Origin: a virus
UHGV virus genome: UHGV-0212520
DNA length: 42,545 nucleotides
Reading direction: 5' to 3' (one strand)
Below, piece after piece: positions 23,412 to 31,357 of the stretch (positions are counted from its first letter, which is position 1; every line of letters starts with the position of its first letter). A program made the position numbers and the translations under genes. The notes beneath the pieces were generated by a model. That model did no database searches. It was given only the letters and a program-made list of their open reading frames with translations, and had not been told where the DNA came from.

Positions 23412-24026
23412 ATGGCGAAGACTAAAACAGAGATGTTTACCCTTATCGGCGCGAATCTCCCTGATAACACCACCGGGCTTATCACCCCCGCCGCATTGCG
23501 TGAGGTAATGACGCAGATGGCAGACTCACCTATCTACGCCACTCCGGGTGTTAAAGAGGTTGAAGTTCTCCGCGCCGCGTCGACAGTAACACAAGCGCCT
23601 ACCGCAGTAGATACGGCGTTGCAGTTAACTTTCGGCTCCGCTCAGGGAAGTGCATCCGACCCGGTAATGATTAATGCAGCGGGTCTGGTTACGTTCAACA
23701 CTGCGGGTAACTACGCCGTCCGCATCAAGTTACAGGCGGGGCGTACGGGGGCAAGCGGTACATCCATCCTGTTGTCCCGCATTCTCCTTAACGGCGCTCA
23801 GTATGGCTCGCCCGCCGCCACGAAACTGGTAAGCGCGGACATCACAATCCCGATTGAATCCCGTGTCGTTATTAACCCCACCGCAGGCCAGACGTTTGCC
23901 GTTCAGATTATGCGAGATAGTGCCGGAAGCAACTTCGGAGGCGTGTACCCACAAGCCGCTACCGTGACCGCATGGGGCACAGCGCCATCTGCGCTACTGG
24001 TTATTTCGAGACTGGAGGCCGCCTGA
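23412..24026 (+). CDS. Structural protein of unknown function
   Basis: 204 aa in head-tail joining region. Confidence 0.45.
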   Translation: MAKTKTEMFTLIGANLPDNTTGLITPAALREVMTQMADSPIYATPGVKEVEVLRAASTVTQAPTAVDTALQLTFGSAQGSASDPVMINAAGLVTFNTAGNYAVRIKLQAGRTGASGTSILLSRILLNGAQYGSPAATKLVSADITIPIESRVVINPTAGQTFAVQIMRDSAGSNFGGVYPQAATVTAWGTAPSALLVISRLEAA

Positions 24027-24385
24027 TGAGCACCGCTTTCAGTAAACGTATGCAAGGCGTGGGTACACGCTTGCTAACCAAATTCGGTAGCACGGTATCT
24101 CTGGTTCGCGCTGGCTCGAAAGTGTGGGATGAAGTTCTCGGGGAGTACGTCTGGTCCGCTGATGAAGTGTTGCCGTTGAATGCTGTACCGGTTCCGGTAA
24201 ACGCGGAACGGGTAAACGGTACGACGATTCAGGCTGGTGACATGATTGTTAAAGCGGATTGCAGTGTCGTTCCGAAGATGGAAGACAAGGTACAATTCGG
24301 CGGCGAACAATGGTCTGTCGTAGCCATTGAGAAGAAGATGGTTAACGATGATGTCGTGGCATACTTTATCCAGGTGAGAAAATGA
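24026..24385 (+). CDS. Putative head-tail joining protein
   Basis: 119 aa from ATG 24026 (ATGA overlap); synteny only. Confidence 0.4.
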   Translation: MSTAFSKRMQGVGTRLLTKFGSTVSLVRAGSKVWDEVLGEYVWSADEVLPLNAVPVPVNAERVNGTTIQAGDMIVKADCSVVPKMEDKVQFGGEQWSVVAIEKKMVNDDVVAYFIQVRK

Positions 24386-24777
24386 GTTTCGCGCTTGATG
24401 TCTCTAAGTTCGTGGAAAAGGCGAAGAAGAACCCCGAGAAGGTGATGCGTCAGGTGTCTATCAAGCTGTTTTCCGCTATTATAAAGGCGACGCCAGTTGA
24501 CACCGGTCGTGCGAGAAATAACTGGTTTGCGTCTGGCAGTACCCCGTCGCAGGAAACTACCACCTACGGCGCACCGCAAGGAACAGCTACTATCCAGCGC
24601 GCTACCGCGGTTATAAACACCGCTACAGACTGGCACGAGTTCACACTGACAAATAACCTGCCGTATATACAGCGGCTGGAGTATGGCTGGTCGCAACAGG
24701 CTCCGGCCGGGATGGTCAGGACTAACGTGTCTCGCTTCCAGCAACTCATTAACGAAGAAGCCAACAAGGTGAAATGA
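24382..24777 (+). CDS. HK97 gp10-like neck/tail-component protein
   Basis: 131 aa; PVDTGRARNNW and LTNNLPYIQRLEYG resemble HK97 gp10 family motifs. Confidence 0.55.
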   Translation: MSFALDVSKFVEKAKKNPEKVMRQVSIKLFSAIIKATPVDTGRARNNWFASGSTPSQETTTYGAPQGTATIQRATAVINTATDWHEFTLTNNLPYIQRLEYGWSQQAPAGMVRTNVSRFQQLINEEANKVK

Positions 24778-25190
24778 TGGGCTACTTTGAGGACTTAACC
24801 AAAGCGTTCGATGTGCCGCTGGTAGCCTTCGGAACCACCAACGGCATCAAGGTCGCGCTTGAAAACATCGACGCGCCGACATCAACAGATACGCCGTATC
24901 TGGCTAGTTACATGCTACTTGCGGATACTGAGCAAGCAGATTTGTTCTTCACGGAACAACGTTCGGGCATTTATCAGGTAGACATTAACTACGCATCGGT
25001 GAAAGGTAGCGCGCCAATCAATAAAATGGCAGACTTACTTAACACGGCGTTTAAAGCAGGCAAGTCATTTTCGCGTAACGACATCTGCGCCGAGGTTCAA
25101 TCGGTTAGCCTGGGGCCGCTGATTGTAGAAAATGGATGGGCCAAACGGCCATTGTCAATTAACTTTATTGCATTCACCAAGAGGCTGTGA
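24774..25190 (+). CDS. Putative tail terminator/completion protein
   Basis: 138 aa immediately upstream of major tail protein; synteny only. Confidence 0.4.
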   Translation: MMGYFEDLTKAFDVPLVAFGTTNGIKVALENIDAPTSTDTPYLASYMLLADTEQADLFFTEQRSGIYQVDINYASVKGSAPINKMADLLNTAFKAGKSFSRNDICAEVQSVSLGPLIVENGWAKRPLSINFIAFTKRL

Positions 25191-26362
25191 ATATGGCTAC
25201 AACTCCTTTTAAGGGCGCGAATACCGCGCAATTCTATGTGGCGGAAGTGACCCCGGGCGTAACACCGGCAAACCCGGTATGGTCGCCGTTGCGTAACACT
25301 GGCGGCGTTCCCGCGGTAACCCGAGATGCGCTGACTTCCAACGAACTGGACGGCAGCCGAGAAACTACATCCATCCGCACTGGTAACAAACAGGTCAGCG
25401 GCGAGTATGCCATTGAGCTTAGCTCCCGTAGCCAGGATGATTTCCTTGCGGGTGCTATGACTTCTACGTGGCAGGATGGGGTAACCTTATCCGCTGTCGG
25501 AATTACGGTAGACCCGGTAGCAAAAACTTTCACCCGCGACACTGGCAGTTTCATTACTGACGGAGTAGAGGTCGGGGACCTTCTGTATTTTGACGCTTTA
25601 ACCGGCGATAACTCTAAGCCGTTTATCGTTACCGCAGTAACTGCTACTGTGGTTACGGGTGCAGGTATTCAACACACCCTGACCGCCGAAGGTCCTATCG
25701 AGACCGACGGTAAAACGGGTGACAAGCTGGAAACCGGTAACGCATGTAAGACTTTCTCCATCCTGACATGGTTCAAAGGTCAGTGTGGGAACCCAGACGC
25801 GTACATGTTGACCAAAGGCGTGGAAATCTCCGGTTTCACCATTGAACAGGCCGTAAACGCGATGGCGACGGGCAGCTTCCCGTTCATCGGCCTGAGTCAG
25901 GAGATTCTTACCGCGCCGCCAGCAGGTTCCGACTTCTCTCAGGTCACATTCACTGACGAGCCGTTCTCTTCTGTAGATGTGTCTGTGTTCGACGGTTCTA
26001 CGCCGTTGCGTTGCGATACTCTGACCATCACCAACGACAACGGTGCTTCCGCGCAGTTCGAACTCGGCAACAGTAGCGTTGCGTTCGTGGAACGTGGTCG
26101 CGCAGCTAATACCTTCTCCATCTCCGGTAAGCTGTACGACATGGCGATGATCCAGAAGTTTATCAACGAGCAGCAGGTAGAGATTAACTCTATTCTGGCG
26201 GGGGTAAACGGAGCTATGTCTTTCAGTTTGAAACGTGCCGAACTTACGGCGGTTACACCAGAGATTGGGGGGCCAGAGTCAATCACTCAGTCCGTTGAAG
26301 GGCAGGCCACCGGCAACCAGTACCAGTCGTCTATTGTTATCCAGCGTATCACCTACGCATAA
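25187..26362 (+). CDS. Major tail (tube) protein
   Basis: 391 aa (probable ATG at 25193, RBS AAGAGG); last gene before terminator and upstream of chaperone/tape-measure genes. Confidence 0.55.
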   Translation: MNMATTPFKGANTAQFYVAEVTPGVTPANPVWSPLRNTGGVPAVTRDALTSNELDGSRETTSIRTGNKQVSGEYAIELSSRSQDDFLAGAMTSTWQDGVTLSAVGITVDPVAKTFTRDTGSFITDGVEVGDLLYFDALTGDNSKPFIVTAVTATVVTGAGIQHTLTAEGPIETDGKTGDKLETGNACKTFSILTWFKGQCGNPDAYMLTKGVEISGFTIEQAVNAMATGSFPFIGLSQEILTAPPAGSDFSQVTFTDEPFSSVDVSVFDGSTPLRCDTLTITNDNGASAQFELGNSSVAFVERGRAANTFSISGKLYDMAMIQKFINEQQVEINSILAGVNGAMSFSLKRAELTAVTPEIGGPESITQSVEGQATGNQYQSSIVIQRITYA

Positions 26363-26363
26363 A

Positions 26364-26392
26364 ACTAAGGCCCCTTTCGGGGCCTTTTTCTT
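26364..26392. terminator. Bidirectional intrinsic terminator (AAGGCCCC-N4-GGGGCCTT family)
   Basis: ctaaggcccctttcggggcctttttc; T-tracts on both strands. Confidence 0.7.
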
Positions 26393-26549
26393 ATTCCTTC
26401 AATTGCATAGGGTAGAAGTTAACGACTTCTCCTTTATCCCGAAGCCGTGAATATTCATCTAACGCATCTTCCTGGCTACTTACGGCATAGATATCATTCC
26501 ACTCGTCCCACTCTTTGTCGTATACGCGGATTACATATATTGTTTTCAT
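26391..26549 (-). CDS. Small hypothetical protein, last gene of minus-strand moron operon
   Basis: Probable start at ATG 26549 (MKTIYVIRVYDKEWDEW...), 52 aa; the track ORF extends to 26606 but would overlap the upstream gene. Confidence 0.35.
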   Translation of the reverse strand: MKTIYVIRVYDKEWDEWNDIYAVSSQEDALDEYSRLRDKGEVVNFYPMQLKE

Positions 26550-26556
26550 TACGGTC

Positions 26557-26787
26557 TCACTCATCAATGTTACTTCGATACTCCCGTAACTTCTCCAGAC
26601 TTTCAATCGCTTCCGCTAAGTCTGTTCCGGTGTCCTTGTGTCCGCGCAAGCCCATGCACAATAACTTCTTCAATGCGTGCTGTAACGCCGGGTCGCGGAT
26701 GTCGAAGGCGCGGAGCACATCATAAACGTCTACTGTCATAGTGCTGCCGTGGATGTTCGTCATTGTGCGGTTGTATTTTGAAGTCAT
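26557..26787 (-). CDS. Hypothetical protein in moron operon
   Basis: 76 aa; ATG overlaps stop of upstream phosphoesterase gene (ATGA). Confidence 0.5.
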   Translation of the reverse strand: MTSKYNRTMTNIHGSTMTVDVYDVLRAFDIRDPALQHALKKLLCMGLRGHKDTGTDLAEAIESLEKLREYRSNIDE

Positions 26788-27914
26788 CCCAGCATCTCCG
26801 GTGAAATAGTTAAACGTGCGACTTCGCCATATTCGGCGCTATAAGTAATTACATTTGCGCTACGGCCAGACATCCACCCACCGCGGGAAGCATATGCATC
26901 TTTCGCCGCGAGAGTGCGATGTTGTTCCACTACCATATTCCTACTTTCTACAATCTTTTGATGGTGGAGATGCCCGACATGTGCGTAACTGTACTCGCTT
27001 TCGCCAAATGCTTTTCTGAACTTAGCTATCATAATGGGTTCGACCACCTCAAACCGGCATTTATGCCCGTGCGTAAAGAACAGCGTCGTTTTGCCGTGCT
27101 GGACCATCTTGTAAACATCCGGCGACGTATCGACGAACACACGCGGCTCATTGTCATACAGCGTACTGAACATCTCAGCCAACCAAATCATGCCACTCTC
27201 GTCGTGATTTCCTTGCACGATAAGCAAGCGAACATTTTTGTGTTTAACCAGCGCCATATCAACAACACGGCGGACCATACGAATCATGTAGCGGACCAGT
27301 TTCTGATAGCGTGTGTCTGCGTCCAACACATGGCGCGACTCAGGGGTAACGGCATCCAGACTATCGAAGTGCGCGAAGTCACCTAACAGGTTAATAACTC
27401 CTGTCCCTGCATCCGGTGCTTTCTGAAACGCTGCATCGAACCAGCGAGAGAACAGGTCTTCCGCGATTTTCATATCCCAGTCGTCGCCGCTCTCGTCGGC
27501 CCAGGCCAGCATGCCAAGATGAAAATCAGATACCGTGTAAAGATTGAGTAGTTTATCATCGCGTTTAGCGCGGGCAGCTTTAACAGGCGCAACTGGCGTA
27601 ATCTCCGACTTCATGCCCTCGATTACGGCTTTCATCAACTCGACCTGACGTTCGGCGTCGGTGTCAGTCTTAACCCATTGCAGTTTAGTATTGCCAAACT
27701 CGTCCACCAGCGACGATGTACCTTTAATCTTGTAGCCGTCTGGTACAAGGTGGCTGACGTCACGTCCGTGGCCTACGCCTTTCTTAGCCAGCTTCGCTTT
27801 ACGGATGCGAATAACGCGGTCTGAGATGCCGTATTTACGGGCGATGTCGATATTCTTCACACCGGCGTTCAATTCTTCCTGCAACTGTTCGTCGGTTATT
27901 TTCTTCCGGGCCAT
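26784..27914 (-). CDS. N-terminal HTH domain fused to calcineurin-like metallophosphoesterase (SbcD/Mre11-like motif set)
   Basis: 376 aa; N-terminal ITDEQLQEELNAGVKNIDIARKYGISDRVIRIRKAKL (HTH); then SDFHLG (DxH), LLGDFAHFD (GDxxD-like), VQGNHDE (GNHD/E), FTHGHK, HVGHLHH (GHxH); RBS GAGGAA. Confidence 0.6.
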   Translation of the reverse strand: MARKKITDEQLQEELNAGVKNIDIARKYGISDRVIRIRKAKLAKKGVGHGRDVSHLVPDGYKIKGTSSLVDEFGNTKLQWVKTDTDAERQVELMKAVIEGMKSEITPVAPVKAARAKRDDKLLNLYTVSDFHLGMLAWADESGDDWDMKIAEDLFSRWFDAAFQKAPDAGTGVINLLGDFAHFDSLDAVTPESRHVLDADTRYQKLVRYMIRMVRRVVDMALVKHKNVRLLIVQGNHDESGMIWLAEMFSTLYDNEPRVFVDTSPDVYKMVQHGKTTLFFTHGHKCRFEVVEPIMIAKFRKAFGESEYSYAHVGHLHHQKIVESRNMVVEQHRTLAAKDAYASRGGWMSGRSANVITYSAEYGEVARLTISPEMLG

Positions 27915-27951
27915 GCTTATTCCTCGTGCTTAGGATTTGTCCTATACTAGC

Positions 27952-28143
27952 TCACTTCTCTTTAACATTCGAGTTGCAAGCCCAGATTAAAATAAATAAC
28001 CACGGCAACAGAACCCAGCCAAGAAACAGATTAGCCATGAATATCGCTAATTTCGCTTTATGGTTGCGGAAGTACGCAACCAGGAAAGGTGTGAAATAGG
28101 CGAGAAGTGCAAACAGAATTAAGGAAACCGGTAAACTGGACAT
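27952..28143 (-). CDS. Superinfection immunity protein (T4 Imm-like small membrane protein)
   Basis: YFTPFLVAYFRNHKAKLAIFMANLFLGWVLLPWLFILIWA matches the Imm_superinfect pattern (YFLPSI..F.R.H.N..AIF.LNL.LGWT..GW..ALIWA) from memory; start set to ATG 28143 (RBS AAGGGG); first gene after promoter B4. Confidence 0.6.
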   Translation of the reverse strand: MSSLPVSLILFALLAYFTPFLVAYFRNHKAKLAIFMANLFLGWVLLPWLFILIWACNSNVKEK

Positions 28144-28173
28144 TTTAAACCCCTTCATTGTTGGTGTAAGTGA

Positions 28174-28202
28174 ATAGTACCCTATTATATTGGGGTGCGC
28201 AA
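28174..28202 (-). promoter_or_regulatory. sigma70-like promoter, family B copy 4 (TTGCGC-N17-TACTAT on minus strand)
   Basis: Reverse complement: TTGCGC accccaatataataggg TACTAT tcactt; drives the imm/phosphoesterase operon. Confidence 0.55.
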
Positions 28203-28309
28203 GTAATGTGATAGAATAATTTTGCGCCTAGTGTCGCACACGAAAAGCGGGTGGTTCCCGTCTGGCGCATTAACCTTAACCAGTAACCTCTTAACCAAAG
28301 GATTAAAGA

Positions 28310-28726
28310 ATGAAACTTTCTGATTTTTATTTCGAAGAGAAAGCACTGGTGGGCAAGAAGATGCCGATTCTCCTGCCGAATGGCGAAGACTCCGGGGAAT
28401 GGCTTAACGTTGTAAGTCCTGATGCGGATGTCGCTGTTAAAGCGGGGCGTGCTTTCATTATCGCGTATCGTCGCGGGCTGGCACGTTTCGAAGAACTGGA
28501 AAAAGCCGCCAAAGAATCCGGCGACTATACTGAATATAACCTGGCGGTTAACGAACTGGCAGAAGACCTCAACCGGCAACTCGCGGCAGAAGTCGTAAAC
28601 GGCTGGAGCTTTGATGAGCCTTTCTCTAAAGAAGCATTTAGCAAATTGCTGGACCAGTTCAAGGCATTGGGCACACAGGTAGCAGCGTTCCATAACGCTG
28701 AGCGCAAAGCATTACAGGAAAAGTAG
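28310..28726 (+). CDS. Tail assembly chaperone (lambda gpG-like)
   Basis: 138 aa acidic protein immediately upstream of tape measure; -1 frame ORF continues past its stop. Confidence 0.55.
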   Translation: MKLSDFYFEEKALVGKKMPILLPNGEDSGEWLNVVSPDADVAVKAGRAFIIAYRRGLARFEELEKAAKESGDYTEYNLAVNELAEDLNRQLAAEVVNGWSFDEPFSKEAFSKLLDQFKALGTQVAAFHNAERKALQEK

Positions 28727-29091
28727 ACGCGCTGTACAGGTTCGCCACCTACGAGTTTGTGGATAAGCATAAAATCAGAGAGTTTGATTCTATAGCTGAC
28801 GGCCACGAACAGGCGCTTATCGCGATGGGTGTAATCGATAAGAAAAAACGTGCAGCGCGACGGGGTGGGCCAGAATGCCCGCCCCTTTTTATATCCACCT
28901 TTGAGACGTACTGTGACATTAAGTTTACGCGACACGTGCGCGAGGACGCTGTAGTATTGTTTGCAAGAGAATCCGTTACGTGGCAAGACCTGAAAGCCTA
29001 TCTCGATGTTACGCAAAAACAGCTTAGCCTGTTCGAGATAGACATTATCATGGGCTTAGAAGCAATCTTTGAAGGTAGAAATCATGGCTGA
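28310..29091 (+). CDS. Predicted tail assembly chaperone frameshift fusion (gpGT-like, -1 PRF near 28718-28726)
   Basis: -1 frame is open from the G stop to 29091, ending inside the tape-measure start; candidate slip at G_GAA_AAG immediately before the TAG stop; the track's independent ORF 28759-29091 has only a GTG start and no RBS. Confidence 0.4.
28718..28726 (+). promoter_or_regulatory. Candidate -1 programmed ribosomal frameshift site (GAA AAG TAG)
   Basis: Lys codon AAG can re-pair as AAA in -1 frame; placed at last sense codon before the stop; lambda G/GT uses GGGAAAG at the equivalent position. Confidence 0.35.
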
Positions 29092-31357
29092 TACCGCTAG
29101 TTTGATAGTACGAGTATCATCGACCGGCGTCGATAAAACCACATCACAACTGAACGGGCTTACTAAGGCGGCGGGGGCCGCTGCCGCTGCCGTTGTCAGT
29201 CTGGAAACTGCTAAGCAGGTATTCAGCGCGCTGGTGGACTCCCAGCGCAACTTCGACAAGCTGAACTCTGGCCTCATCACAATGACCGGGAGCGCTGAGA
29301 ACGCGGCTAAGGCTTTCAGCGTCCTGCAACAGTTCGCAAAAGAAACCCCGTATGGCCTCAATCAGGCGGTAGAGGGGTTTACCAAGCTTGTTGCACTGGG
29401 CCTGAACCCCAGCAAAGAGGCATTAATCTCCTACGGCAACACCGCGGCTGCTATGGGTAAAGACCTTAATCAGATGATTGAGGCGGTTGCCGACGCCAGT
29501 ACCTTTGAGTTTGAGCGACTAAAAGAGTTCGGCATCAAGTCGTCGCAACAGGCGGATACAGTTTCGCTCACGTTCCGCGGCGTAACGACCACGGTTAAAA
29601 AGAACTCCGAAGAGATTCAGAAATACCTGTTAAACATCGGTAACACTGATTTTGCGGGGGCGATGGAAACGCGCTCGAAGACCTTAGATGGTCAATTATC
29701 AAGCCTCGCCGACTCTTTCGACGGCCTTGTTCTTGCGGTAGCGCAATCCGGTTTTGGCGACGCCGTAGGCGAGCAAGCTGCGACAGCGGAAGATGCTATC
29801 ACCGCGCTCACCGACGCCATCGCATCTAATGAGATAGCGGCGACGCTCCAGGATTGGGTGACACTGTTCAATGAATCGTTCAAGTTTATTTCTGATGCCC
29901 TGAATGGCCTGGCATACGACACCGAGGACAAATCCGCGGATATGTCAGACTCGCTGGGAACTATCCCTGACGCCATCCGAGAGTGGTTGCCCGACATCCA
30001 GCAGACATTCCATGAGGTTATTGCGTGGTTCCAGCGCATCGACGATTATGCTGTAGCGCTTGGCCAGACCCTTGCCGACGTGTTTGACCCGAGCAAAACG
30101 GCAGCGCTCACATTTAAAAACCTGACCGCAGAGGCCGACGCCGCATACGACGCCAGCATAAAACGCGCAGAGGCAGAATCCCAGGCTATTACCAACAGGT
30201 CTAAGCAGCGTAAGAAAGAAATTGAGGAACAGCGCAAGCAGTATAATGAGCGCAAGCAGCAAGAAATTGACCTGGCCAGCCTTGTTAACGGAAAGGGTGG
30301 AACTGGTGGGGCAGGAAACACCAACGACAAAGACGCGAAAGCCGCCGCTAAGAAAGCGGAGCAATTGCGTAATCAGGCCCAGGATTATCTGGACACTTTG
30401 GCCCGCCAGAACAATGATGAGTTAAAGGCTATCGACGCGCAGGAGCAGCAGAAACTGGCTAAAGCGAAAGAGTTCTACAGCCAGGGCGCGCTGTCACTGA
30501 AAGAATACGAGCAAGCAAAAACGGCTATTGTCCTGGAAGCAGGGCAAAAACGACAAGATGAACTGGATAAACGCCAGAAAGAAGCCCAGGAAAAGCAGCA
30601 GAAAGGCGATGACTTCATGGCCCAGATTATGGGGCAGAACGCTGCCGAGCTTGATCTCCTCGACATCCAGGAACAGCAGAAACTGGCCGTCACCGATAAG
30701 TATCGAGAACAGGGACTTATTAACGAGGGACAGTATCAAGCTGCACTTAACGCTATAAATGAGCAGTATGCCACGAAGCGCGCCGACGCAACGGCAACGG
30801 CCTTCGGTAACATGGCTTCAAACATTGGTTCGGCTTTGGGCGAGGCTTCTGGTGCGTACAAGGCATTCGCCATCGTGCAGGCCACCATAGCCACGTATAC
30901 CGCAGCTATTGAAGCGTACAAGTCAACGGCAGCTATCCCTGTAGTTGGCCCGTTCCTGGCCCCCGTAGCCGCTGCCGCTGCCGTTGGAGCAGGTATGGCG
31001 CAGGTTTCCGCTATCAGGTCCGCGCGTGAGCAGGGCGGTCAGTTATCCGCGGGGCAGGCTTCCACCATCGCCGAACGCGGTAAACCAGAAGTTATCATGC
31101 CCGCTGGCGCGTCGCGTGTGCGCACCGCACAGCAGATGAAAGAAATTATGGGACAAAACGGGTCTTCTTCCGGTCCGTCTAATGTTACCATCGTAAATAA
31201 CACATCGAGTAAGATTGGCAACGTATCCACCGAACAAGATGATGAAGGCCGTTTACGTATCATCATCGAAGAACAAGTGGCTGCGTCTTTGCAGAACAGC
31301 AACAGTAAGATTAGCAAGGCCCGCAAGGCCACAAGAAATGCGCCGGGGTTCAAGTAA
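29084..31357 (+). CDS. Tail tape measure protein
   Basis: 757 aa from ATG 29084 (RBS GAAGG); long Ala/Gln/Glu-rich coiled-coil; downstream of chaperone pair. Confidence 0.8.
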   Translation: MADTASLIVRVSSTGVDKTTSQLNGLTKAAGAAAAAVVSLETAKQVFSALVDSQRNFDKLNSGLITMTGSAENAAKAFSVLQQFAKETPYGLNQAVEGFTKLVALGLNPSKEALISYGNTAAAMGKDLNQMIEAVADASTFEFERLKEFGIKSSQQADTVSLTFRGVTTTVKKNSEEIQKYLLNIGNTDFAGAMETRSKTLDGQLSSLADSFDGLVLAVAQSGFGDAVGEQAATAEDAITALTDAIASNEIAATLQDWVTLFNESFKFISDALNGLAYDTEDKSADMSDSLGTIPDAIREWLPDIQQTFHEVIAWFQRIDDYAVALGQTLADVFDPSKTAALTFKNLTAEADAAYDASIKRAEAESQAITNRSKQRKKEIEEQRKQYNERKQQEIDLASLVNGKGGTGGAGNTNDKDAKAAAKKAEQLRNQAQDYLDTLARQNNDELKAIDAQEQQKLAKAKEFYSQGALSLKEYEQAKTAIVLEAGQKRQDELDKRQKEAQEKQQKGDDFMAQIMGQNAAELDLLDIQEQQKLAVTDKYREQGLINEGQYQAALNAINEQYATKRADATATAFGNMASNIGSALGEASGAYKAFAIVQATIATYTAAIEAYKSTAAIPVVGPFLAPVAAAAAVGAGMAQVSAIRSAREQGGQLSAGQASTIAERGKPEVIMPAGASRVRTAQQMKEIMGQNGSSSGPSNVTIVNNTSSKIGNVSTEQDDEGRLRIIIEEQVAASLQNSNSKISKARKATRNAPGFK

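Follow-up and report, generated by a model that had tools for sequence, protein, structure and literature searches.

A probable −1 frameshift at a minimal A_AAG site yielding a G/GT-like tail assembly chaperone pair in a Kagunavirus genome

In long-tailed phages, frameshifting that yields a G/GT chaperone pair is textbook knowledge, and little is at stake in the instance described here. The gpG/gpGT pair of phage lambda was reportedly described by Levin, Hendrix and Casjens (1993) and by Xu, Hendrix and Duda (2004, 2013, 2014). As in lambda, the locus analysed here has two overlapping reading frames that directly precede the tape measure gene; a −1 slip shortly before the short form ends, at a site ending in A_AAG, would give rise to the long form. 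The exact lambda heptamer, G_GGA_AAG, is found at this position in one relative of the locus (RP180, L014). By comparison, the site here is G_GAA_AAG, which does not follow the X_XXY_YYZ pattern, and the zero-frame stop codon abuts it. In addition, a minus-strand module lies between the tail tube and chaperone genes, and the Pfam families involved differ from those of lambda (here Phage_TAC_4 and Phage_TAC_18). The ratio and the binding partners of the two proteins are presumed from the lambda system.

The site of Escherichia coli dnaX, A_AAA_AAG, provides a further likeness in its dependence on the single E. coli tRNA-Lys, which pairs weakly with AAG, and this heptamer occurs at the homologous place in two relatives (L098 and L099). 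In dnaX, an upstream Shine–Dalgarno (SD)-like sequence and a downstream hairpin accompany the site and about 50% of ribosomes shift, whereas no stimulator is detectable at the present locus and a low rate is expected. Helpers are also known from other A_AAG sites, namely an upstream SD-like sequence in Bacillus subtilis cdd and a downstream structure in IS elements; no helper element was detected at the window site. IS1222 (G_CGA_AAG) and cdd (A_CGA_AAG) are NNA_AAG hexanucleotide −1 sites, and the efficiency of such sites varies with the two bases 5' of A_AAG (PMC5009743). The resemblance of our locus to these two systems lies in the presumed mode of the slip, re-pairing being possible for the A-site tRNA-Lys (AAG to AAA) and not for the preceding codon.

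The window, that is, the whole stretch of viral DNA analysed (42,545 nt), has about the length of a K1G-like genome (42.5 kb as compared with 43.6 kb for K1G), and the gene order of its tail region is that of K1G. A megablast search with positions 28200–29200 retrieved 117 phage records, the top one being Escherichia phage K1G (genus Kagunavirus, subfamily Guernseyvirinae) with 96.6% DNA identity. By its sequence, the window is a Kagunavirus and a relative of this E. coli phage. The tail tube gene (25187–26362, plus strand) is recognized by Pfam PF18906 Phage_tube_2 (E = 4.8e-38) and PHROG 290 (tail protein), and it is followed by a 1.8-kb module on the minus strand (26391–28158) that contains two small ORFs, a metallophosphoesterase/DNA repair exonuclease gene and a superinfection immunity gene. 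Beyond this module lie, on the plus strand, the chaperone gene (28310–28726; 138 codons) and the tape measure protein gene (29084–31357; phrog_1538, E = 5e-191), whose ATG is homologous to the annotated start in K1G. The original prediction had placed the chaperone gene in a lambda-like synteny; the tube gene upstream and the tape measure gene directly downstream agree with this description, which is refined here by the interruption through the minus-strand module.

Comparison with K1G reveals the same site, CAG GAA AAG TAG, between the same neighbours (superinfection immunity gene, chaperone and tape measure) and nothing of substance that differs at the chaperone locus. The difference occurs in the gap between the tube and exonuclease genes, which in the window spans about 420 nt with two small ORFs (26391–26787) and in K1G holds polynucleotide kinase and ATP-binding genes. 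The K1G RefSeq record (NC_027993) lists ORF22A and ORF22B (YP_009168805 and YP_009168804), the latter as a two-part joined CDS of 782 nt that corresponds exactly to window positions 28310–29091. The same joined CDS is present in fKuEco01 (MT711525), and a version in Salmonella phage Shemara (MN070121) is labelled 'tail assembly chaperone frameshift product'. The putative frameshift is already known as an annotation from these three phages, and comparative support is added here. The locus is annotated as two genes in other records (Bas74, Golestan, Ent3, AG11, Otaku and phiEap-2). The Shashou announcement reported 'no canonical slippery sequence' and on this ground did not call a frameshift (PMC6776780); the Shashou site is nonetheless identical (CAG GAA AAG TAG). 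A literature search for experimental proof of the frameshift in Kagunavirus, Jerseyvirus or any other Guernseyvirinae phage found none. The GenBank records of Guernseyvirinae are inconsistent at this locus, and NNA_AAG followed by a stop codon, taken as the conserved site, would allow their annotation to be harmonised.

The chaperone ORF starts with ATG and ends with the codons CAG GAA AAG, followed by TAG (28724–28726) directly 3' of the shift site G_GAA_AAG (28717–28723, plus strand; core A_AAG, 28720–28723). The nearest upstream stop codon of the −1 frame is TGA 28699–28701; the 129 codons between 28702 and 29088 are open, and TGA 29089–29091 closes the frame. With a slip on AAG (28721–28723), it would contribute 122 codons and the terminal TGA (28723–29091) to a fusion of 260 amino acids, with a computed mass of 29.5 kDa as compared with 15.5 kDa for G alone; the junction-spanning Glu-C peptide of the G–T fusion is predicted to be KVDALYRFATYE. 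The T-frame stop and the tape-measure ATG (29084) overlap by 8 nt, ATGGCTGA, and this overlap reads ATGGCTGA or ATGTCTGA in every relative examined. Both the ORF table and the raw sequence agree with the original prediction that the −1 frame stays open for 122 codons past the slip and ends inside the tape-measure start, and A_AAG at 28720–28723 bears out its reading of GAA AAG TAG as a site where an A before the Lys codon AAG permits re-pairing with AAA.

The two frames can be joined only across seven zero-frame codons (28703–28723), and within this span A_AAG is the sole Z_ZZN site; a check of the same positions for other Z_ZZN shift sites returned none. Among the window ORFs of at least 100 aa, in-frame A_AAG accounts for 0.26% of codons, giving a chance of about 2% for its occurrence within a seven-codon span, and only 1 of 63 such ORFs, the chaperone gene, ends in A_AAG plus a stop codon. 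Since the site is the only one of its kind in the joinable span, A_AAG is rare and a single ORF ends in this way, the arrangement of frames and slip site is unlikely to have arisen by chance. A +1 or −2 frameshift was considered as well and rejected, as the +1 frame closes within 40 nt.

Protein family searches support the assignment of both parts. The profile phrog_15027 ('tail assembly chaperone', 259 positions) matches the zero-frame protein with its positions 1–138 (E = 4.8e-71) and the −1 frame product with its positions 138–259 (E = 3e-70). Because this one profile matches the two halves end to end, the database members of the family are full-length fusions. Furthermore, Pfam PF08748 Phage_TAC_4 matches G with 26.7 bits (curated cut-off, 21.1), and PF23812 Phage_TAC_18 matches the T extension with 67.7 bits (cut-off, 27). 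The gene at 28310–28726 codes for a tail assembly chaperone of the G-like type; 28723–29091, read in the −1 frame, codes for a conserved T-like chaperone domain that lacks a conserved start codon. When the fusion was compared with PDB sequences by phmmer, no significant match was obtained, the only one returned being weak and irrelevant.

To compare the shift site among relatives, a check that the original prediction had named, we collected 80 IMG/VR loci by an alignment-based search, together with GenBank relatives, and made the junction counts on the 77 complete loci. NNA_AAG lies directly before TAG or TAA in 76 of the 77, down to about 42% protein identity, and A_AAG itself is kept in all 77. 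The exception (L110) has one sense codon between A_AAG and the stop codon, and K-V-x-A-L-Y is still the next stretch in its −1 frame. The codon before AAG is GAA in 52 relatives, GCA in 15, GTA in five, AAA in two, and GGA and TCA in one each, which corresponds to the heptamers G_GAA_AAG (52), C/A/G_GCA_AAG (15), G_GTA_AAG (5), A_AAA_AAG (2), G_GGA_AAG (1) and G_TCA_AAG (1). In two relatives (L071 and L072), the −1 frame opens just 7 nt ahead of the G stop codon, a late opening that pins the shift to those two codons. The site in the window does not conform to X_XXY_YYZ, and a canonical heptamer occupies this position in only three of the 77 relatives; the comparison indicates that the invariant element is the A_AAG tetramer rather than a canonical heptamer. 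The tail-chaperone survey of Xu et al. reportedly also lists non-canonical slip sites, so that the departure from the canonical heptamer does not exclude membership in the G/GT class. In E. coli, A_AAG is the most shift-prone tetramer (PMC4066793).

The coding signal changes frame at the junction. In the codon-position test, which covered 18 close relatives (17 distinct sequences without indels), 69 of the 86 variable sites in G are at third positions of frame 0, whereas past the junction the −1 frame has 25 of the 29 variable sites at its third positions; the two variable sites between the G stop codon and the first GTG (28759) are among these 25. The tblastn search with the 260-aa fusion as the query retrieved 496 phage records, 490 of them with one place covering at least 80% of the query; the full-length matches listed all align as two pieces in two frames, with identities down to about 44% in phages of Salmonella, Serratia, Klebsiella and Enterobacter. 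In the fusion alignment of 13 diverged relatives, K138, V139, A141 and L142 are invariant, and conservation continues over the junction in the pattern K-V-x-A-L. The T frame is open for 120–122 codons in 77 of 77 relatives, again down to about 42% protein identity. By comparison, a search across the relatives for a conserved start of the downstream frame found none that is common to all lineages, and most candidate starts have no SD-like sequence. GTG 28759 is replaced by GTC, ATT, ATA or GTA in other relatives, and the Leu codon at 28732, which is CTG in the window, is CTG in 58 of the 77 loci and TTG in 18. An internal ATG that is common among the relatives follows the highly conserved FDSIADGH block, and two relatives (L029 and L030) lack it. 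The switch in third-position variation, the unbroken conservation and the lack of a conserved start indicate that the T frame is translated and that it is entered from G.

Taken as a whole, the comparative tests that were run (protein families, frame switch, conservation and slip site) favour the original prediction of a gpG/gpGT-like pair made by a −1 frameshift, to which we assign a probability of roughly 85%. For most ribosomes, translation would end at TAG 28724 with the 138-aa protein as the product. The remaining minority would slip back by one base, with the tRNA-Lys on AAG (28721–28723) re-pairing with AAA (28720–28722), read GTA GAC GCG CTG and onwards, and end at TGA 29089 to give the 260-aa fusion, ...ALQEK-VDALYRF.... 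If the pair works as gpG/gpGT of lambda does, the G part common to both proteins would coat the tape measure protein encoded next downstream, the rarer T part would recruit the tail tube protein, neither protein would be part of the virion, and the slip rate would set the proportion of the one chaperone to the other. Most likely, a single tRNA slips on the hexamer GAA_AAG, as opposed to a classical tandem slip on X_XXY_YYZ aided by a structure downstream. [quoted passage not shown] In the window, partial re-pairing of tRNA-Glu on GGA, with a G–U pair at the middle position, may help, as may the stop codon directly 3' of the site.

The annotation of the locus as two genes in several GenBank records (Bas74, Golestan, Ent3, AG11 and Shashou) corresponds to a different reading, in which initiation or re-initiation at CTG 28732 or GTG 28759 would yield a free T-like protein of about 110–119 aa that has no G part. 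CTG 28732 could use the AGGA inside CAGGAAAAG, located 11 nt 5' of the CTG/TTG codon, as a weak ribosome binding site, and the Shashou record indeed marks this AGGA as the RBS and TTG as the start; stand-alone calls of the downstream frame are also gathered in a family of their own, phrog_4557 (118 positions). However, CTG is a very poor initiator and is what the window and most relatives carry at this codon, TTG being confined to the minority counted above, and neither GTG 28759 nor any other T-frame start is shared by all lineages or, for most candidates, preceded by an SD-like sequence. V139 and A141 are invariant although they lie upstream of the Leu codon at 28732, and the arrangement of A_AAG and stop codon is far better conserved than any T-frame start. 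Furthermore, a lambda T domain that lacked G would have no tether to the tape measure protein (PMC5009743). We regard a separate downstream gene as improbable on these grounds.

Nearly the same protein as the fusion would result if RNA polymerase added one A in GGAAAAG, since the extra A would bring G and T into one frame, and some bacterial and phage genes do employ transcriptional slippage (PMC5009743). The run of A is only four long here, and three in many relatives (GCAAAG, GTAAAG and TCAAAG), and the feature that is conserved, the codon phase of A_AAG, is relevant to the ribosome and not to the polymerase. Productive transcriptional slippage is not known from runs of fewer than about seven, and this route to the fusion is highly improbable for the present locus. 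It is also conceivable that G alone is made and that the T frame is an unexpressed evolutionary leftover in this phage, a reading for which the lack of a detected stimulator and the low efficiency expected of a bare tetramer could be cited. A leftover of this kind is hardly compatible with a frame that stays open in every one of the 77 relatives, with third-position variation typical of purifying selection and with the many invariant residues, and we give it very little credence. The −1 ribosomal frameshift remains the reading that we prefer.

No stimulator emerged from the regions searched on either side of the shift site. The 84 nt from the site onwards (28717–28800) fold no better than shuffled sequences (z = +0.73), and the consensus fold of 12 diverged relatives, at −0.48 kcal/mol and with no covarying pairs, gave no common downstream structure. 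Likewise, the 30 nt that precede the site contain no SD-like element conserved across relatives. The adjacent stop codon is the sole conserved feature flanking the shift site; because it also sets the C-terminus of G, its conservation is not independent evidence. In some systems, stop codons adjoining shift sites do have an effect (PMC5009743). Z_ZZN tetramers lacking a stimulator gave 0.147% frameshifting in E. coli reporters, against a background of 0.112%, and A_AAG reached 5.6% only with a pseudoknot (PMC4066793). As bare tetramers are near background, the frameshift rate at GAA_AAG could be low, well under 1%. For lambda, the G:GT ratio is about 30:1 (PMC5009743). A low efficiency fits a chaperone needed in small amounts, yet it remains the main uncertainty of the frameshift reading. 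The locus would provide a natural minimal A_AAG site with no detectable stimulator, and its rate would show how little suffices for low-level frameshifting.

Within the T reading frame, the plus strand also contains a terminator-like hairpin (28862–28894) with the sequence GGGGTGGGC-CAGAAT-GCCCGCCCC followed by TTTTTATAT, which covers the T-frame codons RGGPECPPLFI. The hairpin proper (28862–28885) consists of 9 bp, 8 of them G–C pairs, and a 6-nt loop, and with the T-run TTTTTATAT after it has the form of an intrinsic terminator, a G+C-rich stem-loop directly before a U-run on the transcribed strand. It is located 136 nt beyond the G stop codon and about 200 nt ahead of the tape measure gene. 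In a consensus scan it is the strongest terminator-like site in the 20–40 kb part of the window, and the other strong candidates checked against gene maps (26367–26386 and its Shashou counterpart) are intergenic. Its fold of −20.6 kcal/mol compares with −11.7 ± 3.4 kcal/mol for 1000 synonymous recodings of the same peptide, and in 13 of the 14 diverged lineages that bear the hairpin it folds better than the recodings, with z from −1.9 to −3.1. Among 16 distinct sequences from relatives, which all keep the T-run, compensatory changes are seen in the lower stem, in three pairs below the invariant GGGC/GCCC core (A–U 6 and G–C 6; A–U 10, G–C 4 and C–G 2; G–C 12, C–G 2 and U–G 1). The covariation score is 0.311 as compared with 0.121 in shuffles, is reached in none of 500 shuffles and is well above all slid controls. 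The possibility that the hairpin is a by-product of coding for GGPECPP was considered, and both the recoding test and the covariation argue against it. The hairpin is absent from the Jerseyvirus, Golestan-type and Cornellvirus-type lineages, and no substitute terminator-like site was found within G–T in these lineages.

In a Listeria phage, a transcription termination site has been mapped after the tail chaperone gene (PMC12282133), which makes a partial terminator the plain reading of the hairpin: it would act constitutively and keep G far more abundant than the tape measure protein. A frameshift-gated attenuator, in which transcription of the tape measure and distal tail genes is coupled to the frameshift, is an unlikely alternative that we mention tentatively. 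Ribosomes stopping at the end of G would leave the RNA bare, so that the terminator could form, whereas a slipped ribosome in the lead would translate across the hairpin and could suppress termination. The K1B4 transcriptome paper contains nothing on the chaperone locus. The embedded hairpin is the sole lead with some novelty in this analysis, as it could lead to a transcriptional control of the stoichiometry of chaperone and tape measure protein.

The leader of the chaperone gene contains a further RNA motif. The Rfam family int-alpA (RF02996) matches 28221–28285 on the plus strand, ending 25 nt before the G start, with E = 7.7e-6. This RNA could perhaps be part of the same control circuit as the hairpin, and both the embedded hairpin and the int-alpA-like leader motif may be new as observations. 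The window copy scores 34.2 bits, below the gathering threshold of 35.8 bits, and motifs at the homologous position in relatives score 36.6 (L025), 35.8 (L028), 33.5 (L024) and 31.8 bits (L001). With its own score below the threshold and relatives at or above it, the window copy is a borderline member of the int-alpA family.

The chaperone gene (G, 28310–28726, plus strand) ends at the probable frameshift site CAG GAA AAG TAG, from which the –1-frame T extension (28723–29091) runs into the start of the tape measure gene. According to the published genome announcement of Escherichia phage Shashou, the region between the chaperone gene and that of the tape measure protein lacks a canonical slippery sequence. 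In the Shashou sequence itself (MK931440; positions 4770–4830 of L032, the extract from this relative), we read CAG GAA AAG TAG, which is the same site as that of the window and of the phages whose records carry an annotated frameshift. Across the subfamily, GenBank records disagree on the annotation of the chaperone locus.

The T-frame coding sequence contains a strong intrinsic-terminator-like hairpin (28862–28894, plus strand) with a stem of 9 bp, 8 of which are G–C, directly followed by TTTTTATAT. Synonymous recodings of the same peptide are less stable than the native hairpin, and both conservation of the hairpin and compensatory changes in its stem are found among 16 distinct sequences of relatives. 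The hairpin is missing in the Jerseyvirus/Golestan-type and Cornellvirus-type relatives. It could serve as a partial terminator, or as an attenuator, positioned between the chaperone gene and that for the tape measure protein.

The int-alpA RNA motif is usually reported near integrase or alpA genes. Here, a match to this motif (Rfam RF02996) lies in the leader of the chaperone gene (28221–28285, plus strand) and scores 34.2 bits, slightly under the gathering score of 35.8. Counterparts occur in four relatives (L025 and L028, both 512–576; L024, 1414–1477; L001, 2522–2586), two of whose copies reach or exceed the threshold, and in every copy, including that of the window, the 3′ end of the match is located ~25 nt before the chaperone ATG. 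On the opposite strand, a 182-codon ORF (28145–28693) runs antisense to the chaperone gene; a search for PHROG matches to it returned none, and it probably represents a shadow ORF arising from the coding strand.

The RefSeq record of K1G contains another joined CDS, ORF14A/14B (9965–10716 of L113, the K1G sequence), labelled 'tail completion or Neck1 protein'. Its junction in K1G reads AGA AAA TGA. The window homologues (23972–24385 and 24382–24777, plus strand) share a 4-nt overlap; the second of the two, which likewise lies in the –1 frame, has an ATG of its own. For this pair, ordinary ATGA coupling and frameshifting seem equally likely.

The tail gene block is split between the tube and chaperone genes by a minus-strand module (26367–28158), which comprises a bidirectional terminator-like hairpin (26367–26386), two small ORFs (26391–26606 and 26557–26787), a metallophosphoesterase/DNA repair exonuclease gene (26784–27914) and a superinfection immunity gene (27952–28158). 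PHROG matches of a 76-aa ORF of the module, to families of ~235 aa, are confined to their C-terminal third, and this ORF may therefore be a remnant. K1G differs between the tube and exonuclease genes, where polynucleotide kinase and ATP-binding genes take the place of the two small ORFs.
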